Source: Candidatus Woesebacteria bacterium GW2011_GWB1_39_10
Lineage (GTDB): Bacteria > Patescibacteriota > Microgenomatia > UBA8517
Reading direction: 5' to 3'
Assembly: GCA_000993205.1 (NCBI GenBank)
Contig: LBVU01000004.1
Location: 27,338-91,337 of the forward strand
DNA: 64,000 nucleotides
Position 1 is the first letter of the stretch. The number at the start of each line of letters is the position of its first letter. Below the pieces are notes generated by a model. The model was not told the origin of the DNA. It made no database searches and was given only the letters and a program-made list of their open reading frames with translations. The position numbers and the translations under genes are program-made. Below are positions 3,086-23,304 of this stretch, piece after piece.

Positions 3086-3098
3086 ACAAATATATATT

Positions 3099-3224: not shown

Positions 3225-3250
3225 ACTACCATAATTCGAATTATGGTAGT
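3225..3250. promoter_or_regulatory. Perfect 26-bp palindrome ACTACCATAATTCGAATTATGGTAGT ending 8 nt before the trpR-like start codon
   Basis: Read directly. An identical copy sits at 3702-3727 just after the same gene. Confidence 0.6.
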
Positions 3251-3257
3251 ATAAATT

Positions 3258-3701: not shown

Positions 3702-3727
3702 ACTACCATAATTCGAATTATGGTAGT
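3702..3727. promoter_or_regulatory. Second identical copy of the 26-bp palindrome, 4 nt after the trpR-like stop
   Basis: Exact repeat of 3225-3250. Could act as operator and/or RNA hairpin. Confidence 0.6.
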
Positions 3728-3760
3728 AAATAGAACGCAGGGAGTATAATATACATAGTT

Positions 3761-8269: not shown

Positions 8270-8289
8270 ATATAAATCGTTTCAAATGT

Positions 8290-8372
8290 TTTATTGTCAT
8301 TGCGAGGCATCCGAAGCAATCTGTCCATGTCAGAGATTGCCTCGTCGCCTACCGCTCCTCGCAATGACACAA
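8290..8372. repeat. Long nested inverted repeat (13-bp perfect outer stem TGTCATTGCGAGG/CCTCGCAATGACA plus an inner GAAGCAATCTG/CAGAGATTGCCTC stem)
   Basis: Seen directly between the holA-like and metallopeptidase-like genes. REP-like element or structured RNA. Confidence 0.55.
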
Positions 8373-8380
8373 GCCCCATA

Positions 8381-8797
8381 TTAATCAAAATTTTCAAAAT
8401 AACGCAGAACAAGCTCGTCTAACTTTTTACGAAAACTTCCTTTTTTTCTGTGAGTGTGGGGAACCAGGGCCCCTGAAAAATTATGAGGGATGTGTGTCAA
8501 CTCATGAAGAATAACCTTATCCTGATTTCTTTTATCCAATTTATCAAAATGTTCAGCCAGTACCTCAATAATATATCCAGGTTCTATCCCCAAGGACCTC
8601 TGCCAAAGAGCCGGCAAGCCCCACGTTCTTGCATATGCCCTAGCTTTGGAATCTGTAGATCTATAAAAAAAGAGACGCTCATACAAAATCCAATCCATTT
8701 TAAGCTCTGTTATCAGTTTAAGTGACCTTTTTGCAATATCCGGTGCATCCAACCATTCAACTGATTTTGAAGACTTCCGCTTTCTTTTTGACCTCAT
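8381..8797 (-). CDS. Putative HExxH zinc metallohydrolase (YgjP/DUF45-like)
   Basis: 138 aa. HELTHIPHNFSG resembles the HExxHxxxHNHS motif of COG1451-type metal-dependent hydrolases. Shorter than typical. Confidence 0.4.
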   Translation of the reverse strand: MRSKRKRKSSKSVEWLDAPDIAKRSLKLITELKMDWILYERLFFYRSTDSKARAYARTWGLPALWQRSLGIEPGYIIEVLAEHFDKLDKRNQDKVILHELTHIPHNFSGALVPHTHRKKGSFRKKLDELVLRYFENFD

Positions 8798-9120
8798 GAC
8801 AACTCCAAGGATATCACACTTTATATACTTCAGCTCCCTCTTTTACAACCTCTTGAGTTTTGAGACCAACCACTTCGCCTTTATTTGCTGAATCCTTCTT
8901 TTCATGCTCTACCTGGATAGAATCGACATTTTGTTCAAACAAAGTCTCTCCGTCCCTCATAAATTTAACTTCATCGTTAACAGAAAGAGTTCCGTCAAGT
9001 TCGATTATGGCAACCCCTAATTTATCGTAATAGTGAGTAACTTTACCTATTTTAAAAATAATTAATCACCCCAGTTCTAAATTCGAATATCGAAAATCGA
9101 ATGTTTAAAATTTAAAACAT

Positions 9121-9660
9121 CTAAGCCTTCGTATTTGTTTTGGATTTGATATTTCGTGCTTCGGATTTACTTTCCCCCAATTTAAACGCATGTGTTAAAG
9201 CAATTGCAAGAGCGTCGGCAGCATTATCAAAATGAGTTTTTTTATGCGCGCCGCTTTTTACACGACTGCCTAGAATCTTTCTAATATGTGCTTGTACTTC
9301 TTTTTTGTTAGCTCTTCCTGAACCGGTAATCATTTTTTTAATTGTTCCGGGCGCGTATTCTTCGACATGAACATTTGTTTTACTTGCCGCCAGTAACATC
9401 ACACCTTGAGCTTGACCAACCGCTATTACTGTTTTTGCATTCGTTGCAAAAAATATTTTCTCAAAAACAAAAACATCAGGTTTATGTTTTTTAATGAGAG
9501 CAACAATTTCTTCAAAAATGAGGTCCAGTCTGCGTTCCTTAAGAAGAGTTTTACTTGTTTCGATCAACCCCCATGTGACGACTTCGTTTCCCTTTCCGTT
9601 TAAACGAACAAGTCCGAAACCGGTTGTGGCCGTACCGGGATCTATTCCTAAAATAAGCAT
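9121..9660 (-). CDS. ruvC: Holliday junction resolvase RuvC, with a repeat-derived C-terminal extension
   Basis: ILGIDPGTATTGFG RNase-H-fold N-terminus from the internal ATG at 9658-9660. The tail ESKSEARNIKSKTNTKA is encoded by TTCG/ATTTG repeat DNA. Confidence 0.8.
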   Translation of the reverse strand: MLILGIDPGTATTGFGLVRLNGKGNEVVTWGLIETSKTLLKERRLDLIFEEIVALIKKHKPDVFVFEKIFFATNAKTVIAVGQAQGVMLLAASKTNVHVEEYAPGTIKKMITGSGRANKKEVQAHIRKILGSRVKSGAHKKTHFDNAADALAIALTHAFKLGESKSEARNIKSKTNTKA

Positions 9661-9852
9661 AACTAAATTATACCCTAACAAAAAACGAAAAGGGCAGGTA
9701 TCTGTCGATAAATAAAATTTGACAGAACCTGCCCCAATAATTTCTAAGTGCCACAAACACCTTGTCCTGCCGCATAAGCTTTGGCATGGCGGTATTTATG
9801 GCACCTATTCGCCAATTACCTTCCGGATAAAAATTCCGCAGGTATTTGGCAA

Positions 9853-9926
9853 GATGGCCGGGAAGGATTTGAACCTTCGATCTCTCAGATCCTATCTGAG
9901 CGCGTTAAACGACTACGCTACCGGTC
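9853..9926 (-). tRNA. tRNA-like, anticodon AGG (Pro-type?). One A-C mismatch in the acceptor stem; possible pseudo-tRNA
   Basis: Hand-folded cloverleaf. Acceptor TGACCGG/CCGGCCA, D-stem GCGT/ACGC, anticodon stem CTCAG/CTGAG with loop ATAGGAT, T-arm GAAGG-TTCAAAT-CCTTC. Confidence 0.4.
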
Positions 9927-9928
9927 AA

Positions 9929-10027
9929 AAGCGGGTGGAAGGATTCGAACCTTCGACCTTCTAACCATCTATGCCGTTCGGCACAGATTAAACAAGTTAA
10001 CTGCTCCACCAGTTTGAGCTACACCCG
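9929..10027 (-). tRNA. Atypical 99-nt tRNA-like gene. Perfect acceptor, D and T arms, but a ~25-nt insertion forms an 8-bp hairpin in the anticodon/variable region
   Basis: GCGGGTG...CACCCGC acceptor, GCTC/GAGC D-stem, GAAGG-TTCGAAT-CCTTC T-arm. The internal TCTGTGCC-GAAC-GGCATAGA hairpin leaves no canonical anticodon arm. Confidence 0.45.
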
Positions 10028-10144
10028 CACAAAAAAATTAAAGAACTAAAAGGAAACCCTCCGCAGGATATTGTTTCTCAGGGTTTCCTTGACCAGCCGG
10101 TTGTGTCGAATGACAAAACCGTTCCCATAGATATCCCTATGGTA

Positions 10145-10217
10145 AAGACGCCGCAAGGATTTGAACCTTGGATCCAGGTGCTGCGCACCTGAGCCTTGCC
10201 AGACTTGGCTACGGCGC
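10145..10217 (-). tRNA. tRNA-Cys(GCA), putative
   Basis: Acceptor GGCGCCG/CGGCGTC (one G-U), anticodon stem CAGGT/ACCTG with loop GCGCAGC, T-arm CAAGG-TTCAAAT-CCTTG, discriminator U. C33 is unusual. Confidence 0.55.
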
Positions 10218-10274
10218 CGAAAAACACCAGAACACGAGTCTACAAAAATTTAAAAACTTTGTCAATACATTTAG

Positions 10275-10544
10275 TTATTTTCTCTTTGAAGATTTTTTGA
10301 TTTCCTTAACCTCTTTACCGAAAAAATAAATATAAAGAATGTCCAAAATTCCCATTGTGTTTATTAATAATAACGCAATAAACCAGGGCTTGCTGTCCTG
10401 CTTTGCAGCCTTCCAAAGAGCCCAACCTTTCCAGAAAAGACTCCAGATCAAAACGGGTACCAAAAGTAAAGATAGTCCAGACATCATGTTTTCCCAAAGC
10501 GCTCCAGGATACCAATAGTTGCCATAACTATAATTCCACATCAA
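10275..10544 (-). CDS. Small hypothetical membrane protein
   Basis: 89 aa with two hydrophobic helices and a Trp-rich N-terminus. No recognisable domain. Confidence 0.35.
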   Translation of the reverse strand: MMWNYSYGNYWYPGALWENMMSGLSLLLVPVLIWSLFWKGWALWKAAKQDSKPWFIALLLINTMGILDILYIYFFGKEVKEIKKSSKRK

Positions 10545-11161
10545 ATTCTACTCACCTCCCCAAATCTCCTTTCAACTTCTTTCCAATTTACAATGCTCCA
10601 AAATGCCGCTATATACTCTGCTCTCATATTTTTATATTTTAAATAGTAGGCGTGTTCCCAAACATCTAAACAGAGAATGGGTGATAGCGAATAGCTGATA
10701 GTAGAATCTTGGTTTGAAGAATCAGATATTTCAAGTTTCCCATCATTTACAACAACCCATGCCCATCCACTACCAAAGTGTCCGAGAGCTACGGCTGAAA
10801 ACTTTTCTTTAAATGTGTCGAAGTTTCCGAAATCTTTTTGAATTTGGATCATTAGATTTTGTTTCGGATTTCGAATTTCGGAATTCGGATTTGGTTCCAT
10901 AATTTCCCAGAACATATTGTGATTTGCAACACCACCTGCATTATTTTTAACCTTTTGACGAATCTCCTCAGGAACCTTGTCGAGATTTTTGAGGAGTTCG
11001 TTTATATCCATATTTAGTAGGTCATCGTGACCGGCCAAAAGATCGTTCAAATTTTTAACATAGGAGGCATGGTGCTTGTCATGATGAATATGCATAGTTT
11101 CCTCGTCAACAAATGGCTCAAGTGCTTCGTAAGCATAGGGGAGGTCAGGAAGAATGAACAT
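10541..11161 (-). CDS. sodA: Superoxide dismutase (Fe/Mn family)
   Basis: 206 aa. HHDKHH N-terminal metal-ligand region and the C-terminal DVWEHAYYL signature. Contains an in-frame (TTCGRAA)n repeat insert at 10872-10903. Confidence 0.85.
   Translation of the reverse strand: MFILPDLPYAYEALEPFVDEETMHIHHDKHHASYVKNLNDLLAGHDDLLNMDINELLKNLDKVPEEIRQKVKNNAGGVANHNMFWEIMEPNPNSEIRNPKQNLMIQIQKDFGNFDTFKEKFSAVALGHFGSGWAWVVVNDGKLEISDSSNQDSTISYSLSPILCLDVWEHAYYLKYKNMRAEYIAAFWSIVNWKEVERRFGEVSRI
10872..10903. repeat. In-frame (TTCGRAA)-type heptamer tandem inside sodA (encodes SEIRNPK)
   Basis: gtttcggatttcgaatttcggaattcggattt read directly. Confidence 0.7.
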
Positions 11162-11202
11162 AATTAAATGTAACTTCCCTCAAGACTCGTGTCAACCCTC
11201 TA

Positions 11203-11259
11203 CCCAAGGACAGTCCTTGCATACGCACAAAAATCATTACTCAAGGACTGTCCTTGGGT
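11203..11259. promoter_or_regulatory. Two copies of a near-palindromic CAAGGAC-N-GTCCTTG site forming an 18-bp perfect inverted repeat, just upstream of a TTGACA-17-TACATT sodA promoter candidate
   Basis: ACCCAAGGACAGTCCTTG ... CAAGGACTGTCCTTGGGT read directly. Minus-strand TTGACA lies at 11191-11196. Confidence 0.5.
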
Positions 11260-11261
11260 AA

Positions 11262-11615
11262 TTAATCTACTTTGATAATCTTAGATGAAGAAACCAGTCC
11301 ACCTTCTATTTCAATCGCGACAACGTCAATTCTAAGTTTTTTGGGCAAGTCCGGATGGAGTAACGAATAATATTCACCTGTCTTTTTGATTTTGAATAAC
11401 TTGGACCTAGTGACCGCTTCTTCAGGAGCCCCAAACTTGCGTGACCATCTAGCCTTTACTTCTACAAAGACGAGAGTCTCCCCGTCCAATGCTACAATAT
11501 CAATTTCTCCAAAACGGGACCTGAAATTACGGTCTTTTATTTTGTATCCCCCAGATTCAAGAAGTTTTACAGCGTAATCTTCGGCAAGATTCCCAAGTTC
11601 ACTTGTTTTTACCAC
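11262..11615 (-). CDS. yraN: YraN-family (UPF0102) endonuclease
   Basis: 117 aa. GEIDIVA...LVFVEVKAR PD-(D/E)xK-like motif typical of YraN. Confidence 0.7.
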   Translation of the reverse strand: MVKTSELGNLAEDYAVKLLESGGYKIKDRNFRSRFGEIDIVALDGETLVFVEVKARWSRKFGAPEEAVTRSKLFKIKKTGEYYSLLHPDLPKKLRIDVVAIEIEGGLVSSSKIIKVD

Positions 11616-11967
11616 TCTTTATGCTAGCACGCACGGCAGCTCTTTTAAAAATCATTTCCACCTCTGTAGGTGCTTTCTCTCTGGTATAATAAAGTTTAGC
11701 GCGCCTAACTCCTTCTGTACCCTTCTTGATAATGAGAATACGATCGATTGAAGGAAGATTAAGAGGAAATATTTTTTCAACTCCTATTCCCCCTTCGGCA
11801 ATTTTTCTAACAACAAAAGTCTTTCCGGGCTCTCGGCCTCTGATCGCAATAACCATTCCCTCAAAAAAGGCCTCGCGGGTTTTGTCTCCATCTTTAATCT
11901 TTTGAACAACGCGGATTTTATCCCCAATTCCAAACTCGACTTGTTTTAGCGTAATTTTCAATGCCAT
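11599..11967 (-). CDS. rplS: 50S ribosomal protein L19
   Basis: The internal start MALKITLKQ, GDKIRVVQKI...FEGMVIAIRG...TFVVRKIAEGGIGVEKIFPL matches the L19 consensus. Confidence 0.8.
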   Translation of the reverse strand: MALKITLKQVEFGIGDKIRVVQKIKDGDKTREAFFEGMVIAIRGREPGKTFVVRKIAEGGIGVEKIFPLNLPSIDRILIIKKGTEGVRRAKLYYTREKAPTEVEMIFKRAAVRASIKSGKNK

Positions 11968-12011
11968 AGGGGCTATTGTATACGAAACAAAGTCGCGGCT
12001 CAAGTCACATT

Positions 12012-15000
12012 TTACGATTTTGCTGTTTCCAGAATATCTGTTATTCCTTTGGCTAAGGTCTCGTTCCAGAATATTTGAAAGGGTAGCTTGACTTTTTTAC
12101 CTCTTTTTGAGATACCGTTATTGTCAAAAATCAAATAAGCTGTTTGGTCTCCGAGACTGCTAGTTAAAAGGTCTTTTAATCTTCTCAGAGTATTCGCGTC
12201 GGCGCTTGCCGGTATTTTGATATAAACTTCTCGTTGCTTTTTTTCGCTCAGACTGCTTAATGTTTCAATATTTTCTACAAGGATTGAAGGAGTTTCATCC
12301 CGAAAATCTACCTTACCCACTACCAACAATGGCTTTCCTTCAAGCCAAAAATCCCTGGTAGATTTAAATATTTTAGGAAAAACTACCAGATCAATTTGGC
12401 CCGTGCCATCGTCAACTTTAACAAAAGCCATTTCGGCACCGCTTTTTTTAGTGGTAATTACTCTAACTCCACTCACAACCGCAGCAATTCTTACTAAATC
12501 CGAATAATATTCTTCAGGAGTGATTTCATAGATTTTATGAGTCGATTGAAACTCCAAGGGTCCCACGAGCTCACTTATTGGTCTTGCCGTCAAAGAAAAC
12601 CCCAATAGTTGCCGCTCAAGGGACTCTAATTCATCGTCGCCGAATTCCTGAATATTTTCTATCGTTATCACTGAAGCCGCTTCAGTTTTTTTTAAATCTC
12701 CGATGGCAAAAAGTCCCGGTTGATTATCGTCTCCCTTGGGAACGCTTACTTTTTCCCGAACTCTATCAATTGATGCCAGAAGTGCAGAACGCCCGCCAAA
12801 CATATTCATTGCGCCGACTTTTATTAAACTTTCGAGAACCTTTTTATTCACTTTTCTGGCATCTACACGACTCAAAAAATCAGCAAATGATTCGAATTTT
12901 CCTTTTTTTCTGGCAGTTAATATTATATCGATTGCCACTGCTCCGACATTTTTTACTGCCGAAAGTCCGAATCTTATTGCTCCATCTTGTATGGTAAACC
13001 CTATATTGCTCTCGTTTATATCAGGAGACAATACTTTAATTTTCATTCTCCTGCACTCGTTGACTGCCATCGAAATTTTATCTTTATCGGACGCTTCGGC
13101 TGTCAAAAGAGCCGTCATGTATTCAACCGGGTAATTGGCTTTCATATAGGCCGTATAATAGGCCACAATCCCGTAGGAGGCAGCATGGGCTTTATTAAAT
13201 CCGTATGATTGAAATGGTTCAAAAAGTTTCCAAAGTGTCTGAGCAAATTCTTTGGTTTGCCCATTTTTCACGATTCCCGATTCGAATTTCTCTCTTTGAG
13301 CCGCCATTTCTTCGGGAATTTTCTTTCCTACGGCTTTTCTGAACTTGTCAGCTTCCTCCCAACTATAACCGGCGAGGTCAATTGCGCAGAAAAGCAAATC
13401 GTCCTGATAAATTATTAAACCGTAGCTTGCTCCTAAAAATTTTTCCATCCTGGGATCTAGGTATCTCACCATCTTTGGATTTGATTTTCTTTTAATATAT
13501 TCCGGAATAACTGCTAAGGGCCCCGGACGATAGAGAGCAACCATGGCCATTAAATCCTCAACACGGTTGGGCTTGAGTTCCTTTAGGTATTTTGTCATGC
13601 CCCCGCTTGCAAACTGAAAGACCCCCATTGTTTCGCCACGGGCAAGCATTTCGAAAGTCTTTTTATCGGTTAAAGGAATTGTGTGAAGATCGGTTTTTGT
13701 GCCGTAAGTTTTTTCCACAATGTCGATAGCTGAACCTAAAATGGACAGGTTTCGAATTCCAAGAATGTCAAATTTTATTAATCCAACTTCCTCTGCCGCG
13801 TGCATTTCGTATTGTGTTATTATTTTTTCACCCGACGGCTCGCGTTGAATCGGAGAAAAATCAGTTATATTGGTTGGCGCAACTACTACGCCCGCTGCAT
13901 GGACAGAAACATGTCTGGCACTTCCCTCGACTTGCATTGCTAAATCCAGTACCTTTTTTGTTTCAGCGTCGGTTCCGTATAAGTCTCTAAGTTCAGGTGT
14001 TTCTTCAAGGGCCTTAGAAATAGTTATAGGAAAACCCTGTTTTGGAGGTGGAATCAGTTTTGCAATTTTGTCTCCCACATTATATGGATACCCCAAAACA
14101 CGTGCCACATCGCGCACGGCAGCCCGGCTTAGCATTCTTCCGAAAGTGCATATTTGAGCCACATTATCTTTGCCGTAAGTTTTGGTTATATATTCAATAA
14201 TTTCGTCGCGTCTATCGTCCGCAACATCGAAATCAATATCGGGAGGGCTTGGACGATAAGGATTAAGGAATCTTTCAAAGGGCAAATAATAAGTTAGCGG
14301 GTTAACTGTAGTAATTCCCAAAACATACGAAACAAGGCTCCCTGCGGCCGAACCTCTGGTATTGGTAATAATTCCGACTGAGGCGGTCCAATTTGCCAAA
14401 TCTCTAACTATTAAAAAATATGCTGAATATCCTTTTTGACTTATAATATCGAGTTCATGTTCAAGTCGTATGAGTTCTTCAGGGCCTGCGTCAGGGAGCT
14501 TTTCACTCAGTTTTTCGTGTGCAAGTTTACCTAACTGTTCATCAGCCGTTACTCCGTTTGGTAATGGGAACTTGGGAAAAAACCATTTTCCAAGCGTAAT
14601 TTCCACATTACATTTTTCGGATAGTTTGACCGTATTTTCTAACGCGTCGGGATAGTCAGGAAATAGTGCCGCCATTTCCGAAGGAGACCGAACGTAAAAT
14701 GTCTGCGCGTCTATATACCTTAAACGTTTGGTTTCACTCATAGTTTTGCCTGTAGCTACACAAACCAGCGCATCCTGGGCGAAGGCATCTTCTTGTTTTA
14801 TATAGTGGGCATCATTGGTTGCAACCAGCGGGATCCCATATTCCCTACTGAGTTTGATTATTCCGGCATTCCATTTATTTTCGGTTTCCTGAAGTTCGTT
14901 TAATGTACTTTTTATTTCTGCTGTCGGTGCTTTTGTGAGCCACTTTGCATATTCGTGTCTTTGTATTTCAAAATAGAAATCATCCTTGAATGTGTCTACA

Positions 15001-15497
15001 TAAAAATCGACAAGGTTTTTGATATTTTCTTTATCATCCCTGGCAATTGCCTGCCCAATTTCTGCCTGCGGACAACCCGACGTACAAATTAAACCTTTTG
15101 AATACTTTTTTAATGTTGCGTGATCCATTCTCGGGCGATAATAAAAACCGTCAACTTGAGCAATTGAAGCCAGTTTCATTAAATTTTTATAGCCTTCGTT
15201 ATTTTTAGCCAAAAGAAGTATATGAAAGTTTTGCGCCCTGCCTTTTTCTGCTTTTTCATGAAGATCACCCGTAGTTATATACCCCTCCATTCCCAAAATT
15301 GGTTTTATACCCTGTTTGAGTCCCTCTTTATAAAACTCAACCTCTCCGTACATTACTCCGTGATCTGTTATGGCGACAGATTCCATCCCTTGTTCTTTGA
15401 CATGATTAAAGAGTTTCTTGATTTTACTTAACCCATCAAGAAGTGAATACTCTGTGTGAACATGAAGATGGGCAAATTTAGACATTTTCTGATTCAA
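12012..15497 (-). CDS. dnaE: DNA polymerase III alpha subunit
   Basis: 1161 aa. N-terminal PHP domain HLHVHTEYSLLDG, polymerase core and a C-terminal OB region. Confidence 0.9.
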   Translation of the reverse strand: MNQKMSKFAHLHVHTEYSLLDGLSKIKKLFNHVKEQGMESVAITDHGVMYGEVEFYKEGLKQGIKPILGMEGYITTGDLHEKAEKGRAQNFHILLLAKNNEGYKNLMKLASIAQVDGFYYRPRMDHATLKKYSKGLICTSGCPQAEIGQAIARDDKENIKNLVDFYVDTFKDDFYFEIQRHEYAKWLTKAPTAEIKSTLNELQETENKWNAGIIKLSREYGIPLVATNDAHYIKQEDAFAQDALVCVATGKTMSETKRLRYIDAQTFYVRSPSEMAALFPDYPDALENTVKLSEKCNVEITLGKWFFPKFPLPNGVTADEQLGKLAHEKLSEKLPDAGPEELIRLEHELDIISQKGYSAYFLIVRDLANWTASVGIITNTRGSAAGSLVSYVLGITTVNPLTYYLPFERFLNPYRPSPPDIDFDVADDRRDEIIEYITKTYGKDNVAQICTFGRMLSRAAVRDVARVLGYPYNVGDKIAKLIPPPKQGFPITISKALEETPELRDLYGTDAETKKVLDLAMQVEGSARHVSVHAAGVVVAPTNITDFSPIQREPSGEKIITQYEMHAAEEVGLIKFDILGIRNLSILGSAIDIVEKTYGTKTDLHTIPLTDKKTFEMLARGETMGVFQFASGGMTKYLKELKPNRVEDLMAMVALYRPGPLAVIPEYIKRKSNPKMVRYLDPRMEKFLGASYGLIIYQDDLLFCAIDLAGYSWEEADKFRKAVGKKIPEEMAAQREKFESGIVKNGQTKEFAQTLWKLFEPFQSYGFNKAHAASYGIVAYYTAYMKANYPVEYMTALLTAEASDKDKISMAVNECRRMKIKVLSPDINESNIGFTIQDGAIRFGLSAVKNVGAVAIDIILTARKKGKFESFADFLSRVDARKVNKKVLESLIKVGAMNMFGGRSALLASIDRVREKVSVPKGDDNQPGLFAIGDLKKTEAASVITIENIQEFGDDELESLERQLLGFSLTARPISELVGPLEFQSTHKIYEITPEEYYSDLVRIAAVVSGVRVITTKKSGAEMAFVKVDDGTGQIDLVVFPKIFKSTRDFWLEGKPLLVVGKVDFRDETPSILVENIETLSSLSEKKQREVYIKIPASADANTLRRLKDLLTSSLGDQTAYLIFDNNGISKRGKKVKLPFQIFWNETLAKGITDILETAKS

Positions 15498-16134
15498 TTA
15501 TTCTAACTTGATTTCTACCGGCTTTTTTTGCTTCATAAAGCTTACCGTCAACCTTTTGAAAAAAATCCTCAAACTTTCCACTCTTAAAAATGCCTGCTCC
15601 CAAGCTTACTGTTATTCCGGGAATAACTTCGTGGCTGACTGTAAAATGATCGATTCCTGCAATTTTGATTCTAAGACGTTCAGATATCTCTTTTAGTTCT
15701 TTCTCATTTTTAAAAAAACCAAGGATACCTATTTCTTCTCCACCCCACCGGGCGATAAAATCACCCTCTCGCAACGATTCCTTGAGACTGTTTCCGACAA
15801 GAGCCAGGACTATGTCACCGACACCGTGGCCATATTTGTCATTGAAATCTTTGAAATGATCAATATCAGCTATAATGAATCCAAACTCTACTCCTTCATC
15901 AACTAATTTCTGTACCTTTTTGTCAAACTCGCTTCTGTTCGGCATTTTCATTACGTTATCTTGAGAACCTTTTAAATCGGCTATTGTCAGCATTCCTGTC
16001 AACATTTTTCTTACTTGCTCCTCATTAAAAGTCCCATCTTTCAACCCATCGAATATCCTATCAACTCTTGCCCTATGATGATCTTTTCTACTTAATAATT
16101 CAGAACCGGCAGGTAAGTTCGTTTTCTCACTCAT
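15478..16134 (-). CDS. GGDEF-domain protein (diguanylate cyclase-like) with a variant GGEEI active-site motif
   Basis: 218 aa. DHFKDFNDKYGHGVGD and RWGGEEIG read directly; the Phe of the GG(D/E)EF motif is replaced by Ile. Confidence 0.65.
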   Translation of the reverse strand: MSEKTNLPAGSELLSRKDHHRARVDRIFDGLKDGTFNEEQVRKMLTGMLTIADLKGSQDNVMKMPNRSEFDKKVQKLVDEGVEFGFIIADIDHFKDFNDKYGHGVGDIVLALVGNSLKESLREGDFIARWGGEEIGILGFFKNEKELKEISERLRIKIAGIDHFTVSHEVIPGITVSLGAGIFKSGKFEDFFQKVDGKLYEAKKAGRNQVRIIESENV

Positions 16135-17468
16135 TTTTGTATCCCTTCTAAAAGTTTCTCACGTACAATTTGTGGGTTTCCCTTTCCTTGTAGTTTTTTT
16201 TGTGTCATGCCAATCAAAAATCCTATCACGTTGCCATTGCCGGTTTGATAATCGGAAACCGCTTTCTCATTTTCTATTAAAACACTTTTCACAGCGTTTT
16301 CAACTTCTTCGTTTGACGAATATGCGACACTTGTTAATTCGATTATTTTCTTGACTAACCCCGCCGGTTCCGGAAACTCTTGATCCAATTTTCTATTTAT
16401 CATCAAATCCGCTATCGTCCTTGCTGACAGGGTCGCACCCTGTCCAAATTTACTCTGAGCTTGCCGAAGGGCTTCCTCAAAATAATTAGCTCGGTCCAAG
16501 TCTGAAACCAAAATATTCGCAAAGTCTTTCGAAAGTTCGTATTCTTTCTCAAATCTCACCCGTTTCTGTTCCGGCAGTTCAGGAATTGTTAATTGTAAAT
16601 TCTTAATTATTAATTCCGAAAGCTCTATCGGGGGTAAGTCAGCTTCAGGAAAATATCTGTAATCATGGGCGTCAGCTTTTGAACGTTGAGAGAATGTAGA
16701 TTGTTTAACTTCATTGTAACCTCTCGTTTCCTGCACCAACTCCTCCCCTTTTTCTAAAGCTTCGGTCTGTCTTTTAATTTCCACAGAGGCGGCTTTTTCC
16801 AAAAACTTAAACGAGTTGATATTTTTTAGTTCGACTCTATAGTTTGGTAATTTATTCGCAATTACCTGTTCGCTATTCGCTAACGATATATTTGCTTCCA
16901 GTCTCATACTCCCTTTTTCCATGTCTGCGTTACTTATTCCCAAATACCGAACAATCAGTTGAACATCTTTGAGAAAAGAAATTATACTTTCTATGTCATG
17001 AAAATCAGGTTCAGTCACCATCTCCATTAAAGGAACCGAACTCCTGTTAAAATCAATTAAAGAAGATTTGACCCCGTCGATTGTTTCGTGAACAAGCTTC
17101 CCCGTATCCTCCTCAAGATGAACTCGTCGAATTCTTTTACCGGCAAAATTTCCACCAACACAAAACGGCAAATCGTACTGAGAGATTTGATAACTTTTTG
17201 GGAGATCTGGATAAAAATAATGCTTTCTGTCGAATTTGCTAAATAAATTAATCGTAGACCCCATCGCAAGACCAAACTTGATTGTTGAAATGACAGCTTC
17301 ATAGTTTGTATAAGGAAGTGCTCCGGGTAATCCCATACAAATAGGGCAAACTTGTGTATTTGGTTTTTTGCTAAAATGATCGGCTGAACATGTGCAAAAT
17401 AGTTTAGTTTTAGTGGCAAGTTCAATGTGAACTTCCAGACCAATAATTGGAATTAATGTGTTTTTCAT
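16131..17468 (-). CDS. gatB: Asp/Glu-tRNA(Asn/Gln) amidotransferase subunit B
   Basis: 445 aa. IGLEVHIELATKTKLFCTCS N-terminus typical of GatB. Confidence 0.85.
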   Translation of the reverse strand: MKNTLIPIIGLEVHIELATKTKLFCTCSADHFSKKPNTQVCPICMGLPGALPYTNYEAVISTIKFGLAMGSTINLFSKFDRKHYFYPDLPKSYQISQYDLPFCVGGNFAGKRIRRVHLEEDTGKLVHETIDGVKSSLIDFNRSSVPLMEMVTEPDFHDIESIISFLKDVQLIVRYLGISNADMEKGSMRLEANISLANSEQVIANKLPNYRVELKNINSFKFLEKAASVEIKRQTEALEKGEELVQETRGYNEVKQSTFSQRSKADAHDYRYFPEADLPPIELSELIIKNLQLTIPELPEQKRVRFEKEYELSKDFANILVSDLDRANYFEEALRQAQSKFGQGATLSARTIADLMINRKLDQEFPEPAGLVKKIIELTSVAYSSNEEVENAVKSVLIENEKAVSDYQTGNGNVIGFLIGMTQKKLQGKGNPQIVREKLLEGIQK

Positions 17469-17471
17469 TTT

Positions 17472-18869
17472 TTAGAATGCAACTTTTGGAACATAATCAA
17501 TAGCTTTGTGGTAAAGTTTGCCTAATTCAAAAAGTGCCGGCTCCGAAAATCTCGAACCCATCAGCTGAAACCCAAGAGGTAAACCTTGTTTTGAAAACCC
17601 GCTTGGAAGGGCAAGAGAAGGAATTCCGCAAAGATTCGCCGTGGCAGCGTAAACATCGGTTAAATACATTGTAAGAGGATCCGAAACTTTATCTCCCAAC
17701 TTAAACGGCGGGGTTGGGGCAACCGGGGCGATAAGAGCGTCCACTTCATCAAATACTTTGTCTACCTCACTAATTATTTTAGATCTGACCTTCATGGCTT
17801 TAAGATAATAAGCATCGTAATATCCTGCGGATAAAACATAAGTTCCAAGCATTATTCTTCTTTTTGCCTCATCCCCAAAAGAATCGCGCCCATTTCCGTA
17901 GCGTATTCCGTCAAATCTTCCCAAGTTAGATGAAACTTCAGCCGGCTGAATAACATAATAGACGTCAATTGCATATTTAGTGGAAGGAAGAGCCACTTCT
18001 TTAAATTCAATTCCTTCTTTTTTCAAAACTTCTATCCCTAGGGTTATTGTTTTTTCAACCTCCGGATCAATCCCCTCAGTAAAAAACTCTTTCGGAATCC
18101 CCACTCTTAATTTCGAATTTCGAATTTCGAATTTCGAATTTACGACAGTGCCGTCATATCCATCTTCTCCTTTTATAACATTAAAAACAGTCTCTACATC
18201 CTCAACAGTTCTCCCTATGGGCCCAACAGTATCCAGTGAAGACGCCATCGCAATTACCCCATACCGGGACACTGCGCCATAAGTGGGTTTGATCGCAACG
18301 CTAAAACAATAATTCGCAGGCAATCTAATAGAGCCGCAGGTATCGGTTCCTGTTGTAATCAAACTCATATTCGCCGCAAGCGCGGCACCGGAACCACTTG
18401 AAGATCCTCCGGGCACATATTCCTTATTCCAAGGGTTTTTTGTAGGACCAAAATCGCTATTTTCACCTGATGAGCCATGCGCCCAGGCATCGCAGTTCAA
18501 TTTACCTATCGGGATTGCCCCGGCATTTTCTATCCGGGATACGCTGGTTGCAGAGTAAGGCGGAATGTAACTTTCCAAAACTTTTGACCCTGCAGTGGTT
18601 CTAATTCCTTTTGTTAAAAAAATATCTTTATATCCAACCACAACCCCTGCCAATGGATTTTCTTTGAAAAACTCTTCAGTATATTGATCTAGATCATTAA
18701 ACTTTTTAGCCTTGGAATATGCGATTTCATCAGAAGTTGTTAAAAAGATATTATATTCTTCATTATATTTTTTAATTCGTTCGAGATACGCGTCCACAAG
18801 TTGCACAGCAGAAAATTCCTTTTTGATAAGTCCATCTTGCGTTTCTTTAATTGTTAGTGGAATTTTCAT
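17472..18869 (-). CDS. gatA: Glutamyl-tRNA(Gln) amidotransferase subunit A (amidase signature)
   Basis: 465 aa. GGSSSGSGAALAA amidase signature and the GKLNCDAWAHGSSGENSDFGPTKNPWN block. In-frame (AATTTCG)x4 insert at 18109-18141. Confidence 0.88.
   Translation of the reverse strand: MKIPLTIKETQDGLIKKEFSAVQLVDAYLERIKKYNEEYNIFLTTSDEIAYSKAKKFNDLDQYTEEFFKENPLAGVVVGYKDIFLTKGIRTTAGSKVLESYIPPYSATSVSRIENAGAIPIGKLNCDAWAHGSSGENSDFGPTKNPWNKEYVPGGSSSGSGAALAANMSLITTGTDTCGSIRLPANYCFSVAIKPTYGAVSRYGVIAMASSLDTVGPIGRTVEDVETVFNVIKGEDGYDGTVVNSKFEIRNSKLRVGIPKEFFTEGIDPEVEKTITLGIEVLKKEGIEFKEVALPSTKYAIDVYYVIQPAEVSSNLGRFDGIRYGNGRDSFGDEAKRRIMLGTYVLSAGYYDAYYLKAMKVRSKIISEVDKVFDEVDALIAPVAPTPPFKLGDKVSDPLTMYLTDVYAATANLCGIPSLALPSGFSKQGLPLGFQLMGSRFSEPALFELGKLYHKAIDYVPKVAF
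18109..18141. repeat. (AATTTCG)x4.5 tandem inside gatA (encodes NSKFEIRNSKL)
   Basis: taatttcgaatttcgaatttcgaatttcgaattt read directly. Confidence 0.8.
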
Positions 18870-18878
18870 GCCTAAAAA

Positions 18879-19193
18879 CTACTTATCGCTCCTTTCTGTC
18901 AAGATCGCGTCCACTTTAAAATAGCCGTTGTGTGTTTTGTTTGTCCCAGAAAGTGCTCCATTTTGGTCGATACTGCTTGGTTTGACTTCGTCTTCACGAA
19001 GCACGTTTGTCAGTCCCGCAGTCTGACTGGTAGGAGTTAGATCTGTCGTATCAACCTTACCCAGTTCACCAACATGTTCGAGTATCTGAGAAAGCTGGGG
19101 AAGAAATTTGTTGATTTCAGTATCAGTCAAATCCAATTTTGCCAACCTTGCTACATGAGTTACATCCGCCTTCGAAAGCTTTGCCATATCCAT
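18879..19193 (-). CDS. gatC: Asp/Glu-tRNA amidotransferase subunit C
   Basis: 104 aa. LSKADVTHVARLAKLDL...VDTTDLTP matches the GatC pattern. Directly upstream of gatA. Confidence 0.75.
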   Translation of the reverse strand: MDMAKLSKADVTHVARLAKLDLTDTEINKFLPQLSQILEHVGELGKVDTTDLTPTSQTAGLTNVLREDEVKPSSIDQNGALSGTNKTHNGYFKVDAILTERSDK

Positions 19194-19205
19194 ATAATAC
19201 CCGAC

Positions 19206-20144
19206 TCACATCATATTTTGAAGGGCCGTAATGCGTTCCGGCATTGGAGGGTGGGTGTTAAATAAACCAGCCATAAAGTTTACTGCCCGCTGACTTTTGT
19301 CGGGAACGGAATGGAAAGGATTCACGATATACAAATGCGCAGTCGCTTTATTTGCTGCCTCAAGTGGCTCCGTATCGGCAGATATTTTTTTGAGGGCGGA
19401 GATAAGCCCTTGAGGTTGTCTGGTTATCTCAACCGATCCTGCGTCAGCTGTAAACTCCCTGCGCCTACTGATCGCCAGTTGTATTAATTGGGCAATTATT
19501 GGTGAAAGTATGGCAAAAATTATTCCCAGCACCAAAAATATTGCTCCGATATTTCCATTGTCCCGATCTCTTGACCCTCGCCCGAAATAACTCATTCTTA
19601 AAAACCAATCTCCAAGAAGGGCAACAAGACCTACCATTACAGACACAATCGACATTAAACGAATATCGTAATTTCTGATATGAGAAATTTCATGAGCCAA
19701 AACTCCCTCGAGTTCAGTCCTGTTTAGTTTTGAAAGTAAACCGGTGGTTGCACAAATCACAGCGTGATCCGGATCTCTCCCTGTGGCAAAAGCATTGGGA
19801 GCCGTATCTTCTATTACATACAACTTTGGTTTGGGTATTCCCGCTCCGATACATATGTTTTCGGCTACCTGAGTAAACAGTTTGTCTTCGATGGTGTTTG
19901 CGTGGCGGGCACCCGAAATTCCCAAAACTATTTTGTCTGAATAATAATAACTAACGAAAGATGAAATCCCGGATATTATCATTGCCATACCAAAATAACC
20001 CATTCCACCTGGCTGGTAGCCCATATAGTAACCAAAAGCATTGGTAAGGATATAAGCGGCAACAAAAACAAAGAGAACAAAAAGCGCTACAACAAAAGCG
20101 CTTTTTATCTTATTGCTCATCTGAACTTCATATATATTCCGCAT
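19206..20144 (-). CDS. htpX: M48-family zinc metalloprotease HtpX
   Basis: 312 aa. N-terminal TM helices and the HEISHIRNYD HExxH motif. Confidence 0.8.
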   Translation of the reverse strand: MRNIYEVQMSNKIKSAFVVALFVLFVFVAAYILTNAFGYYMGYQPGGMGYFGMAMIISGISSFVSYYYSDKIVLGISGARHANTIEDKLFTQVAENICIGAGIPKPKLYVIEDTAPNAFATGRDPDHAVICATTGLLSKLNRTELEGVLAHEISHIRNYDIRLMSIVSVMVGLVALLGDWFLRMSYFGRGSRDRDNGNIGAIFLVLGIIFAILSPIIAQLIQLAISRRREFTADAGSVEITRQPQGLISALKKISADTEPLEAANKATAHLYIVNPFHSVPDKSQRAVNFMAGLFNTHPPMPERITALQNMM

Positions 20145-20189
20145 ACGTCATCCTGGAGTCCCGCTCTGTGGGACGATAGGATCTTATCA

Positions 20190-20756
20190 CTAAAGTTGAA
20201 CTTTGGGTGTTTTTGTATCAGCGTCGGTTACTTTTGTAAAATCCCCACTCTCCGGAGTCTCTAAACCCTTTAATGTTTCAAAATGAAACATGTCGGCAAC
20301 CAAATTGCTGGGAAAAGTTACACGTTTAACATTGTAATCAGCAGTAAGGTCGATTAAGAGTCTTCTTGCATACATTACTTTATCACTCGTATCCCTTAGA
20401 TCATTCATCAGATTTGTAACAACTTCCGCTCCTTTAAGCTCGGGGTTACTTTCAACAACAACTTGAAGTTTTGGCAAAAGTTCAGAAATTTTTTTGGATG
20501 CGTCTTTACCGCTCGATACCATCTTTCTGGCATCAGACAACATTTCCAGTATTCCTTTTTCGTGCGTTAGATATCCTTTTACGGAAGACTCCAAATTGGG
20601 AATAAGTTCTGCCTGACGCTTCAGTTGGTTTCCAATTTCCTGAATCGAAGCTCCTACTCTCGTTTTTGTAGAAACAAAAAAATTGTAAATCGAAACTACC
20701 CAAAGAATTAAAATCAATACAATTCCTAATAATATATATTGCATAAATATCACCAC
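20190..20756 (-). CDS. lemA: LemA-family protein
   Basis: 188 aa with a single N-terminal TM and a LemA-like helical domain. The lemA-htpX pairing is common. Confidence 0.7.
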   Translation of the reverse strand: MVIFMQYILLGIVLILILWVVSIYNFFVSTKTRVGASIQEIGNQLKRQAELIPNLESSVKGYLTHEKGILEMLSDARKMVSSGKDASKKISELLPKLQVVVESNPELKGAEVVTNLMNDLRDTSDKVMYARRLLIDLTADYNVKRVTFPSNLVADMFHFETLKGLETPESGDFTKVTDADTKTPKVQL

Positions 20757-20760
20757 CCCT

Positions 20761-20853
20761 CAATTCTCAATTTTCAATTCGCAATTTTCAGTAAATTTTC
20801 ATTGCCTCAATGATCATTGAGTAATTCATTGTAAATTGTAAATTATTAATTGT
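20761..20853. repeat. Intergenic heptamer arrays (CAATTYT)x4 and (TTGTAAA)x3, plus the perfect 16-bp palindrome CTCAATGATCATTGAG
   Basis: Read directly between the polX stop and the lemA start. Confidence 0.65.
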
Positions 20854-20856
20854 AAA

Positions 20857-22563
20857 TTAAACCAACAGTTTCTCAAACGATTTCAGATCAAGACAATTGA
20901 CTATGTTGGTTTTCTCACACCATCCTCGTCTTGCTACCGAAACTCCAAACGTCATATTATTCATTCCGTCAATATGGTGTGCATCTGTTCCAAATGTTAA
21001 TTTCACACCAAGTTTCACAGCCTCACGGACTAGTGTATCGGGGAGATCCAAACGCATCGGGTCGCAATTTATTTCTATCCATTTATTATTTTTTAAACAA
21101 AACTCAAAAATTTCCGGCCAGTTTAGTTCCGCACCCTCTCTTTCATTTAATTTGCGCCCGGTGGGATGGGCGAATATTTTTACTCTTGGGTGGGATAGTG
21201 CGGCCATCACTCGTTTTGTTTGTACATCGCGCGGTAGGTCAAAATTTGAATGAATTGAGACCAGAGCAAAATCTAAAGTGTTTAATCCTTCACCGGGAAC
21301 AGGAAGGCTCCCATCGGATTTCATGTCAATTTCGAGGCTGTTAAATACTCTACGAATATATTTTGTGTTCATATTTTTAATTGAGTAGTTTATTTGTTCA
21401 ACCTCTTCCTTCTTCGCTTTTAGCTTTTCGGTAATTTGAAAATCCGTGTGTCCTTTTTGACTGGGATTGTGTTCTGTGAAAGCTATATATTCATATTTGA
21501 GCTCGTCAGCTTTTTTAACAACCTCTTCCATGGAACTGGCTCCCAAATCGTGACTTGTTTCTATGTCAAAACTTGAATGAATTTGAAGATCCGCTTTTAC
21601 ATCGGTTAGTTCGATCAATCTTGGGAGTGAATGATTTTTAGCCGCCTCAATTTCTCCGGTGTCCTCCCTAAGTTCCGGCTCGATATAATCAAGTCCAAGG
21701 AAATTATAAAAATCTTTCTCCGTCTTAAATTTTCGAATTTCGTGCTTCGGATTTCGAATTTCGCGAATTCCTTTTTCGCTAAGACTATATCCGTTTTTTA
21801 AAGAGAATTCGCGTAGAGCAATATTATGATGTTTACTGCCTGTGAAATGTTGTAGAGCTGCTCCGTATTGTTCAGTCGTTGAAACCAAAAGATCAATTTG
21901 GATATCCCCCGGAATTAAAATTGAAGCGGTTGTATCGCCAGCTTCAATTGTTTTTTGGCTATTCGGGTATTTTGTGAAATGTTCTATTACTTTTACCTTT
22001 TCACTTTTACCTTTTACCTTTGCTAAAATATCAATATCTCCAATTGTGGAAACATTTCGCCTAAGACTACCCAATGGGTCGATTTGGATAACGTTTTTAT
22101 CTTTTTTCATCCAATCAATAATAAATCCGGCGGTCGATGCGGCATATGGCAAAAGATGACGTTTTGTTTTTTTCTCCCTTACTTCAACTTCTTTGAGGAG
22201 TTTTTTAACCTCGGACGGTTCACCCTGAGCAATTAGGCGAAGGGCAGTTTTAATGCCAATTCCGGGCAACTCCATTAATTTGAAGGCTTCTTTGGGGATA
22301 TCCTTCATCAACTCATCAAAATGTCTGGAGTGACCAGTTTTGAAGAGCTCTCCTAGGTGTTCTGCGATTGAAGGGCCTATTCCTGGGACTTCTTCCAGCT
22401 TTCCATCATCCCAAAGGTCTTTAAGCTCGCTTGTGGCGTGTTCCACGGCATCTGCCGCGCGTTCATACGCAATTATTTGGAATTTATACTTGTTTTGGTC
22501 TTTTAATTGGTAGGCAGCCGCTACATCGCGAAGCAATTCTGCAATTTCCAAATTAGTCATCAA
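20857..22563 (-). CDS. polX: DNA polymerase X family protein with C-terminal PHP phosphoesterase domain
   Basis: 568 aa. N-terminal HhH/Pol-beta-like region (GIGPSIAEHL, LPGIGIKTA) and C-terminal PHP motifs (HSSFD, FGTDAHH). Carries two in-frame repeat inserts (21729-21770, 21990-22024). Confidence 0.82.
   Translation of the reverse strand: MMTNLEIAELLRDVAAAYQLKDQNKYKFQIIAYERAADAVEHATSELKDLWDDGKLEEVPGIGPSIAEHLGELFKTGHSRHFDELMKDIPKEAFKLMELPGIGIKTALRLIAQGEPSEVKKLLKEVEVREKKTKRHLLPYAASTAGFIIDWMKKDKNVIQIDPLGSLRRNVSTIGDIDILAKVKGKSEKVKVIEHFTKYPNSQKTIEAGDTTASILIPGDIQIDLLVSTTEQYGAALQHFTGSKHHNIALREFSLKNGYSLSEKGIREIRNPKHEIRKFKTEKDFYNFLGLDYIEPELREDTGEIEAAKNHSLPRLIELTDVKADLQIHSSFDIETSHDLGASSMEEVVKKADELKYEYIAFTEHNPSQKGHTDFQITEKLKAKKEEVEQINYSIKNMNTKYIRRVFNSLEIDMKSDGSLPVPGEGLNTLDFALVSIHSNFDLPRDVQTKRVMAALSHPRVKIFAHPTGRKLNEREGAELNWPEIFEFCLKNNKWIEINCDPMRLDLPDTLVREAVKLGVKLTFGTDAHHIDGMNNMTFGVSVARRGWCEKTNIVNCLDLKSFEKLLV
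21729..21770. repeat. TTCGAAT/TTCGTGCTTCGGATT repeat block inside polX (encodes IREIRNPKHEIRKFK). Shares the 18-mer AAATCCGAAGCACGAAAT with the ruvC tail
   Basis: Compared by eye with 9148-9168. Confidence 0.7.
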
Positions 22564-22583
22564 CTGTTATAATACACACTATT

Positions 22584-22657
22584 GGGGTCGTAGCTCAACT
22601 GGCTAGAGCGCTTCCCTGTCACGGAAGAGGTTGCGAGTCCGAATCTCGTCGATCCCG
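22584..22657 (+). tRNA. tRNA-Asp(GTC)
   Basis: Cloverleaf folded by hand. Acceptor GGGGTCG/CGATCCC, anticodon loop CTGTCAC, T-arm GCGAG-TCCGAAT-CTCGT, discriminator G. Confidence 0.85.
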
Positions 22658-22767
22658 CCCCAAATTCCCATTGACTTCGGTTTGATCATAGTCTAAATTC
22701 AGGCTAATTCGATTCCCTGCCCGGGGCTTGCCACTCCGAAGCCGAAGGCGAAGGGTGGTGAATATAT

Positions 22768-23304
22768 TTGAACTTTGATCTAAAAAAATTTCTAAAAAAC
22801 TTAAAACTTAACGAAGAAAATATCAGCATGGTTTTAGGAGCTTTAGTTATAGTGATTGTTGGAATTTTGATCGTAAACTACTTTAAGGATAAGAAAAGCG
22901 ACACTCTCACGGGAATTAATACAGGGAGCGAATCACAAAAAGAACACGTTGTAGTTAAAGGTGAAACTCTTTGGTCCATAGCAGAAGATAAATATGGTTC
23001 CGGTTACAACTGGGTAGACGTTAAAAAAGCCAACGAACTTAAATCGGATACGATTGAGGTTGGTCAAAAATTAACTTTGCCTGAAGTTTCAGCCAAAAAA
23101 CCTACATTGACAAAACCAACCTTGTCTGCAAACACTCAGACTCTATCTGGAGATACATACACTGTTGTTAAAGGAGATACTCTTTGGAGCATATCGTTAC
23201 GCGCATACGGAGACGGATACAAGTGGGTAAGTGTCGCAAAAGCAAACAAACTTGTTAATCCAAATGTAATCCACGTAGGAAATGTGTTAACGTTACCGCG
23301 TTAA
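22768..23304 (+). CDS. Membrane-anchored protein with two LysM peptidoglycan-binding domains
   Basis: 178 aa. N-terminal TM, then two copies of V(V)KGETLWSI...YG.GY.WV.VAKAN LysM repeats. Confidence 0.8.
   Translation: MNFDLKKFLKNLKLNEENISMVLGALVIVIVGILIVNYFKDKKSDTLTGINTGSESQKEHVVVKGETLWSIAEDKYGSGYNWVDVKKANELKSDTIEVGQKLTLPEVSAKKPTLTKPTLSANTQTLSGDTYTVVKGDTLWSISLRAYGDGYKWVSVAKANKLVNPNVIHVGNVLTLPR

Follow-up and report, generated by a model that had tools for sequence, protein, structure and literature searches.

Heptanucleotide repeats are known from phase-variable loci such as neuO of Escherichia coli K1, HMW1A of Haemophilus influenzae and ctxAB with its TTTTGAT unit, and the reading frame of neuO is kept only when the copy number is a multiple of three. 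The rickettsial palindromic elements (RPEs), reportedly described by Ogata and colleagues in 2000, are said to be palindromic, ~100-150 bp long, with a common consensus and clear presence/absence insertions. As relayed in PMC4679880 and PMC4692102, no class of long simple-sequence repeat is more abundant in many prokaryotes than that with heptanucleotide units, for which an origin by polymerase slippage has been proposed (Mrazek 2007). The G-rich heptamers of Xanthomonas (GGGAATC) and of Nostoc and Calothrix (GGGGA(T/C)T, STRR-type) lie in intergenic DNA and are under-represented within coding sequence, and their preference for about four units has been ascribed to G-quadruplexes; they occupy the same loci in close relatives, vary there in sequence and length and occasionally form inverted pairs (Rehm et al. 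2015, PMC4692102). Direct repeats of TAACTGA are found upstream of start codons in marine Beggiatoaceae and in cyanobacteria (MacGregor 2015, PMC4679880). Our literature search found no report of heptamer arrays in genomes of the candidate phyla radiation (CPR) or in frame within housekeeping genes; searching by repeat sequence gave no relevant paper, and Lin & Kussell 2012 do not treat heptamers. Here we describe arrays of this kind in a 64,000-nucleotide (nt) stretch of a groundwater Microgenomates/Woesebacteria genome of the CPR (contig LBVU01000004.1, positions 27,338 to 91,337; hereafter the window), where they lie in frame in ruvC, sodA, gatA, polX and further genes. They are best explained as heptanucleotide simple-sequence repeats, or bacterial microsatellites, that are unusual in their location and are not inserted elements.

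An earlier note on this DNA had proposed a family of TTCGAA-containing heptamer repeats inserted in frame into four housekeeping genes. The tracts exist as described: the hosts carry the Pfam domains RuvC, Sod_Fe_N and Sod_Fe_C, Amidase (GatA), and PolX with HHH_8, Pol-beta thumb and PHP; all four genes are on the minus strand, and every tract is translated in frame. The gatA array (18109-18141) is a perfect (AAATTCG)4.7, or (AATTTCG)4.7 on the forward strand, that covers codons 243-254 (VNSKFEIRNSKL) and encodes SKFEIRNSK. The sodA array (10862-10892) is made of AAATCCG, AATTCCG and AAATTCG units and encodes PNPNSEIRNPK at codons 90-100, with NSEIRNPK as the tract peptide. The first polX array (21731-21763), with the units CGAAATT, CGAAATC and CGAAGCA, gives REIRNPKHEIRK at codons 266-277. 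The degenerate AAATCCG-type array of ruvC (9138-9170) forms codons 164-175, the C-terminal tail of RuvC, with the peptide SKSEARNIKSK. The additional intergenic copies claimed for the neighbourhood of ruvC correspond to an array directly downstream of the gene (9076-9111; units AAATTCG, AATATCG and AAAATCG) that is inverted relative to the tail array. All of these lie within ~10 nt of the positions given earlier, which were exact for the ruvC tail and gatA and are corrected here for sodA (from 10872-10903) and polX (from 21729-21770). The 18-mer AAATCCGAAGCACGAAAT, reported as identical in polX and the ruvC tail, is indeed an exact match between 21737-21754 and 9151-9168, and a second exact 18-mer, CGAAATTCGAAATCCGAA, is common to polX and sodA. 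Tandem unit pairs with at most two mismatches gave 15 matches, compared with 2.6 expected, and none of 100 shuffles reached 15. A restriction-site effect of TTCGAA was rejected, as outside the arrays this hexamer shows no avoidance and no unusual frequency (30 occurrences vs. 22.7 expected, arrays counted).

The tracts are not a distinct TTCGAA element, however, but part of a larger set of period-7 arrays, at least 17 in the window, that are built of many differing units (Tandem Repeats Finder gave ~18 period-7 rows). The units unrelated to TTCGAA include TAAAAGG, TTTGAAC, AATTGTT, TATTCGC, CTCAATT, ATTGTAA, ACTTTTA, AGAACTA, GTACTAT, ATATAGT and AATTACA, and 12 of the 17 arrays lie in frame within open reading frames (ORFs). 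A census of strict arrays in the window found five at period 7, three at period 14, a multiple of seven, and none at other periods, compared with 0-0.1 per period in the shuffled window. Relatives were compared over gatA with up to 10 kb of flank on each side in 80 Woesebacteria species. The 1.46 Mb compared, from 81 genomes, contain 35 strict arrays at period 7 vs. 1-12 at each other period between 4 and 12, with 0-2 in the shuffled set, and a tail of exact runs is seen at period 7 alone. Looser criteria yielded 56 arrays across the loci with a length peak at 29-33 nt, 50 of them inside ORFs of at least 150 residues.

The arrays recur at the same sites among the relatives with different units. 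At the GatA site, the identity at lag 7 reaches at least 0.6 in 13 of 83 species, compared with 0 of 83 at the other lags from 3 to 12. The units at this site are AAATTCG in the window, AAATTCC in the loci L032, L076 and L009, AAAACTC in L049, AACGAAG/AGTGAAA in L010, AATTATG in L016 and ATTCCGC in L024; a codon alignment shows AACGAAG/AGTGAAA at the tract site of L007 too. The PolX site follows the same trend, with differing units in relatives. At array sites of the window, polX of L007 carries (AAAAGTC)n, and gatB of L007 and L008 carries five copies of AAATnnC. All nine arrays detected in gatA are inside one 17-codon stretch, the gatB arrays that can be aligned to the window protein all fall in three stretches, and the sites in polX, the RuvC tail and the Wzy protein also recur. 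Array-bearing species are dispersed on the GatA tree, often beside sister species without periodicity, and close relatives without periodicity at the same sites have an unchanged length. Variation in sequence or copy at single loci is thus present among relatives at GatA and PolX, as well as at BioA (described below). Unit families specific to a genome were rejected by permutation: 18 within-genome pairs are at a distance of at most one, and 732 of 2000 permutations reach 18, so that unit similarity is not higher within genomes than between them.

The arrays originate at the DNA level rather than at the protein level. The 18-mer common to polX and ruvC is read in different frames, giving PKHEI in polX and SEARN in ruvC. 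Units that contain stop codons, such as AATTAAC, AGTACAT and TAGCGAA, depart from their consensus exactly where an in-frame stop would occur, and the long perfect arrays have stop-free units in every case. The overall enrichment of stop-free consensus units in ORFs is weak at best (26 of 50 arrays, or 52%, vs. 44% expected from base composition). The similar EIRN(S/P)K peptides of the four proteins follow from the repeat itself. Because 7 and 3 share no factor, every frame of an array gives one cyclic 7-residue peptide (KFEIRNS from AAATTCG and KSEIRNP from AAATCCG, in all three frames), so that the likeness of the peptides needs no selection on the protein. Selection of an EIRN(S/P)K-like peptide, with the DNA periodicity as a by-product, would account for four proteins having similar peptides. 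However, the period is 7 nt instead of 21 nt, identical DNA stands in different frames in polX and ruvC, and intergenic DNA holds like arrays. Furthermore, about half of the consensus units encode stops that are patched only at the in-frame stop positions, and the peptides at orthologous sites are unrelated. Protein-level selection is therefore very improbable.

Structural mapping placed all four tracts at permissive positions, in line with the surface loops that the earlier note had expected. The SodA tract is located exactly between the Sod_Fe_N and Sod_Fe_C domains and forms the interdomain linker, the PolX tract is a loop of the thumb, and the RuvC tract is a C-terminal tail past the end of the Pfam RuvC domain (residue 157). 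In a structure model of GatA, the tract is a coil of low predicted local distance difference test (pLDDT) score between a helix and a strand; the model is of only moderate quality (mean pLDDT 71.6), and the loop assignment thus rests on the coil, the low confidence and the indel-rich alignment to solved structures. Orthologue alignments of gatA and polX showed no net insertion, contrary to the description of the tracts as inserted. The 11-codon gatA tract aligns without gaps to a highly variable segment of equal length in 120 homologues (70-100% identity), codon alignments indicate replacement rather than insertion, and solved GatA structures are seven residues longer than the window GatA at the tract. 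In polX, the tract region falls 7-9 codons short of its counterparts in the syntenic relatives L007 and L009 and is four residues longer than in Thermus PolX. The sodA tract has three residues more than most superoxide dismutases and is equal in length in L010 and L062, which have the related NPTTEARSPS and NPKSEVRDPK, and the ruvC tail extends ~6 residues past that of L009.

The arrays also differ from known insertion elements in their ends. Neither the terminal inverted repeats nor the target-site duplications of miniature inverted-repeat transposable elements (MITEs) and repetitive extragenic palindromic (REP) sequences were found at the tracts, and units and boundaries differ between arrays, which leaves no common consensus with defined ends as in the RPEs. 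RNA folding compared with shuffles was better for the perfect gatA array only (z = -3.3), and the values of the other tracts are near or above those of the shuffles (sodA +0.6, polX -0.2, ruvC region +1.0); an RPE-like hairpin was rejected. Thus, the proposed analogy to RPEs holds for the in-frame location in surface or linker sites of essential proteins and fails for size, palindromy, ends and net insertion. Together these comparisons support the view that the tracts are repeats at the level of DNA, which essential proteins tolerate in frame where their sequence varies between lineages.

The tracts are retained on re-assembly. The same 21 kb is present in six independent assemblies (ENA, JGI-type and NCBI GCA_000994565.1) with an identity of 99.6-100%, zero gaps at the tracts and identical tract sequences; the GatA of 'Microgenomates group bacterium GW2011_GWC1_...' matches the window GatA at 100% identity. 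Low-complexity repeats are sometimes mis-assembled, which would make the tracts an artefact of sequencing or assembly. However, the identical tracts come from different assemblers, both the reads and the assembly k-mers are longer than the arrays (at most 33 nt), the host ORFs are all intact and such arrays are seen in dozens of other species; as far as consensus assemblies go, an artefact is ruled out, with hardly any probability left to it. No frame-shifted variants were found among the six assemblies, and the hosts gatA, gatB, polX, sodA, ruvC and ileS are unlike phase-variable contingency loci.

The observations established above are the specificity for period 7, the diversity of units, the recurrence at the same sites with turnover of units, the lack of net insertion in both gatA and polX, and the deviations by which units avoid stops. 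The account that we consider probable, though by no means assured, is that misalignment in a register of seven builds and homogenises arrays in unconstrained DNA, with the outcome filtered by coding constraint. A nascent strand would be transiently misaligned by 7 or 14 nt during replication or repair. Such an event would either copy a neighbouring unit at constant length (intra-array conversion) or add or remove whole units, and repeated events in freely varying DNA would build period-7 arrays and re-homogenise them. Within genes, selection would keep arrays only in sequence-tolerant surface loops, interdomain linkers and termini, would retain in-frame lengths only and would remove units that give an in-frame stop codon. 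A length-dependent bias of expansion and contraction may cause the mode of ~32 nt. The earlier note had called the tracts mobile or slippage-prone: slippage fits best, and mobility mostly fails, with a weak residue discussed below.

Similar arrays are found beyond the Woesebacteria. A metagenome collection was scanned with (AAATYCG)3 alone, and 80 loci were taken from the matches listed, to which all metagenomic results given here refer. At least 87 (AAATYCG)n arrays are present in these loci on contigs of 33-70% GC, and their lengths peak sharply at 31-33 nt, probably non-coding copies included (7 of the 14 probably non-coding arrays are 31-33 nt). No conserved flanks, ends, target duplications or larger element were found around the 87 copies. 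The hosts include TrmD, ValRS, MiaA, ThiC, TsaD, the C-terminal tail of TrpE and a verrucomicrobial BioA, and a GatA from an organism of 47% GC has the array at the same site as the window. Viral contigs hold 36 (AAATYCG)n stretches, whereas two stop-free control heptamers made by permutation gave 15 and 10 (an excess of 2.4-3.6 times). The (AAATYCG)n stretches have a narrow length range and lie on GC-rich contigs, whereas the control heptamers vary broadly in length (22-89 nt) and lie mostly on AT-rich contigs. In the verrucomicrobial BioA, a segment with a period of seven residues stands at one site in ~110 of 120 homologues, in variants such as NPKSEIRNPK, NSKSKTQNPK and NPQSAIRNPQ, and is absent in four. 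The array-less allele keeps one unit (AAGCCAA AATTG) and is shorter by exactly 21 nt, or three units, indicating local amplification or contraction rather than the arrival of foreign DNA.

Some metagenomic and viral loci show further arrangements. Inverted pairs of (AAATCCG)n, 45-120 nt apart, are seen in L091, L097, L100, L141, L162, L113 and L235 and might fold into long hairpins. L111 and L112 each have one array in the loop between the arms of a GC-rich inverted repeat, within or beside genes. About 12 arrays run on into degenerate heptamers, as in CAAATCC GAATGAC CAAAAT.

Several points weigh against misalignment as the full account. A change of 7 nt in either direction is a frameshift in an essential gene, so that expansion within genes needs either a 21-nt jump or a length-neutral conversion; neither was directly observed, and the six consensus assemblies have zero length polymorphism. 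The length peak at 29-33 nt is seen in non-coding DNA too (the intergenic arrays of the window are 30-36 nt). A reading-frame rule (1.6 to 4.6 units) was therefore rejected as a full explanation of the mode at 32 nt, and simple slippage does not predict a mode at ~32 nt, or ~4.5 units, unless a length bias is added. The unit (AAATYCG)n does not behave like the control heptamers, being commoner in viral contigs, narrower in length and found in GC-rich hosts, and among the metagenomic matches listed it spans the whole range of 33-70% GC. Finally, the irregular unit AAGCACG is present in both polX and the ruvC tail, with AAACACG in gatA of L040, and irregular units held in common hint at copying between loci. 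The ~32-nt mode, the occurrence of (AAATYCG)n across the GC range and in GC-rich hosts, and the irregular units at several loci are left unexplained by misalignment.

These same features would fit a mobile or templated cassette, a modified form of the earlier proposal, in which ectopic gene conversion or some enzyme copies a ~32-nt (AAATYCG)~4.5 sequence from locus to locus, and perhaps from genome to genome, where it overwrites permissive sites. The exact 18-mers shared by polX with the ruvC tail and with sodA, one of which contains an irregular unit and stands in different frames, are consistent with such copying, as are the near-identical AAATCCGAAACACGAAA in gatA of L040 and the perfect AAATTCC and AAATTCG arrays with equal boundaries in distant GatA clades. 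The sharp length mode of the metagenomic arrays, non-coding copies included, their GC range and the excess, narrow lengths and GC-rich hosts in viral contigs point in the same direction. However, conserved flanks, ends and target duplications are missing at the 87 copies among the matches listed, net insertion at gatA and polX is zero, and the majority of the window arrays are built of unrelated units. The similarity of units within genomes is not above that between genomes, and the array-less BioA allele, with its native unit and its difference of exactly three units, speaks for local amplification or contraction. The GC range itself comes from a scan with (AAATYCG)3 only and thus lacks control heptamers. 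A cassette is accordingly the less plausible account, with a minor though real share of the probability. We regard it as similarly doubtful that a process other than ordinary slippage, common to several phyla (CPR/Woesebacteria, Verrucomicrobia and others), writes or rewrites heptamer blocks of ~32 nt into freely varying DNA, loops of essential genes among it; such a process might be repair synthesis that is templated in register 7, or ectopic conversion with a pool of arrays as donors. If it were real, together with a (AAATYCG)~4.5 cassette spreading within genomes and from one to another, it would explain the quantised length in both coding and non-coding DNA, the AT-rich arrays in genes of 60-70% GC and the common irregular units.

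Of the remaining period-7 arrays of the window that lie within ORFs, two are in gatB, three in ileS and one each in polX (its second), a DNA polymerase III delta-like gene and a Wzy-type membrane protein, all on the minus strand. The second polX array (21989-22021) has the unit AAAGGTA and the peptide AKVKGKSEKVKV, and is three residues longer than the corresponding segments of L007 and of Thermus PolX. The gatB array at 16584-16615 has an AATTAAC-type unit, encodes ELIIKNLQLTI and marks a hot spot common to eight other species. The one at 16853-16882 (unit TAGCGAA, LANSEQVIANK) is weaker in the window and clearer in L008 and L033. The ileS arrays are at 48848-48880 (unit AGTACAT, PVQSTKYIVHST), at 48615-48642 (unit ACTACAT, TTYYILHTL) and, as a short array, at 48501-48517 (unit AAATCTC). 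The polymerase III delta-like gene has the unit AAAGTTC at 7719-7743, and the Wzy_C membrane protein has TTAGTTC at 31301-31329, at the same position as an array in L033. At or upstream of the start of a gene for a phosphoenolpyruvate-utilising enzyme lies a perfect (TAAAAGG)3.6 (3098-3122), which repeats, on the other strand, the unit that the second polX array also has. A further intergenic array (57469-57498) has the unit AATTACA.

In the spacer between polX and the LemA gene (20757-20856), two arrays of ~32 nt flank the terminator-like palindrome CTCAATGATCATTGAG, the second reaching the ribosome-binding site. The array at 20828-20858 (unit AATTTAC) begins at the polX stop codon, and the array at 20759-20790 (coding-strand units GAAAATT, GCGAATT and GAGAATT) is located between the palindrome and the LemA ribosome-binding site. 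The same spacer is 3-48 nt long in relatives, with nothing but a hairpin in L007 and just 3 nt in L009, so that the arrays here are net additions to non-coding DNA.

Such positions bear on a functional reading, in which five cores at a spacing of 7 nt bind an oligomeric DNA- or RNA-binding protein or act as a structural signal in transcription or translation. The typical array, coding or not, comprises five cores and four spacers in ~32 nt, some arrays lie directly at stop codons, ribosome-binding sites and terminator hairpins, and inverted pairs of arrays recur at distances of 45-120 nt in several metagenomic contigs. Regulatory roles have also been proposed for the TAACTGA and GGGAATC heptamers (PMC4679880, PMC4692102). 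However, the many unrelated units in one genome make a single sequence-specific binder unlikely, the orientation is inconsistent and the sites are mid-gene loops of unrelated housekeeping genes. The RNA structure is inconsistent as well, and an Rfam search of positions 8000-23000 returned tRNAs only, with no known RNA family at the arrays. Moreover, the periodicity is lost in close relatives with no change in length. A cis-acting element is thus distinctly unlikely, less so than selection on the peptide and more so than the cassette.

Other observations concern the surroundings of the arrays. The gatA genes of the window (17472-18869) and the 95%-identical relative L008 (54-1451) form a mosaic, with the first ~460 nt identical and the remainder 10-15% diverged, and gatB of the same pair has an identity of only 76%. 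Divergence between the two gatA genes has two local peaks, one of them at the array, a comparison that is not decisive in a mosaic gene. The mosaic suggests recent recombination between Woesebacteria populations. A major facilitator superfamily (MFS) transporter gene lies between gatA and gatB in L007 (11407-12672) and L009 (9156-10403) and is absent from the window. The assembly L003 (GCA_000994565.1, NCBI, 2015) is without four pieces of 96-125 nt that are present in the window and the other assemblies (window 10971-11085, 13729-13854, 24021-24117 and 25361-25457); none of these gaps coincides with a heptamer array, and they are probably scaffolding errors. Between tRNA-Pro and tRNA-Cys, a tRNA found with Rfam (49.8 bits; 9930-10028, minus strand) has a 28-nt insertion in the region of the anticodon loop and may contain an intron; ARAGORN made no call. 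Two long perfect palindromes, TACTACCATAATTCGAATTATGGTAGTA and CATTCAAGGTGTCACCTTGAATG, each occur twice in the window: one pair (3224-3251 and 3702-3729) brackets a small ORF at 3255-3698 and the other (~61497-61520 and ~62214-62235) a small ORF at 61525-62211. These pairs could be paired operators, terminators or the boundaries of a small cassette. The palindrome GACAGGGTGCGACCCTGTC is found at 16425-16445 and 39008-39028, with one copy within gatB, and the terminator-like TTTCCCAAAGGGAAAAAA is found at 28503-28520 and 32445-32462.

If misalignment under coding constraint is the right account, bacteria with reduced genomes carry, in essential genes, microsatellites that undergo constant re-homogenisation of their DNA, and the same few protein loops serve as 'dumping grounds' throughout the clade. 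This would provide a natural system for measuring concerted evolution, with the mutational process set against coding constraint. The array loops are hypervariable strain markers, those in GatA, GatB, PolX and SodA are predicted to be safe insertion points, and, where arrays are perfect, single-copy essential genes have a potential hot spot for frameshifts. Were the cassette real instead, it would imply that DNA is written or converted by a mechanism not yet described.

Comparison with the described systems places the arrays closest to the prokaryotic heptanucleotide repeats. The RPEs share with them the presence of repeated DNA in frame at surface positions of essential proteins. However, the tracts described here are tandem heptamers of 25-36 nt, without conserved ends or a consistent hairpin and mostly without net insertion. 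Phase-variable loci are likewise tandem repeats of 7 nt, but these are long, variable in copy number and located in surface or virulence genes, whereas the present arrays are short, fixed in consensus length and located in essential housekeeping genes. The TAACTGA repeats resemble them as direct heptamer repeats of 2-6 copies that occur across phyla and are restricted in location by the stop codons of the unit, with the difference that one dominant unit is found upstream of start codons there and many units within genes here. With the repeats of Xanthomonas and Nostoc, the arrays have in common the preference for about four units, the variation at the same locus and the occasional inverted pairs. 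In contrast to those repeats, they are A/T-rich, incapable of forming G-quadruplexes and mostly coding. As A/T-rich arrays also comprise about four units, the comparison suggests that G-quadruplexes are not the cause of this preference, and, if our account is right, the ~4-unit preference of the G-rich heptamers needs none. The repeats of Mrazek, in so far as they are relayed in PMC4679880 and PMC4692102, agree with ours in the tandem units of 7 nt and in the selective over-representation of period 7 among periods 5-11; their coding arrays have mainly units with a length that is a multiple of three, whereas those described here are mostly in frame in loops of housekeeping genes. Thus, the tracts share with heptanucleotide simple-sequence repeats the head-to-tail tandem units, the excess of period 7 and the variation at the same locus, and differ from them in lacking the usual intergenic location.

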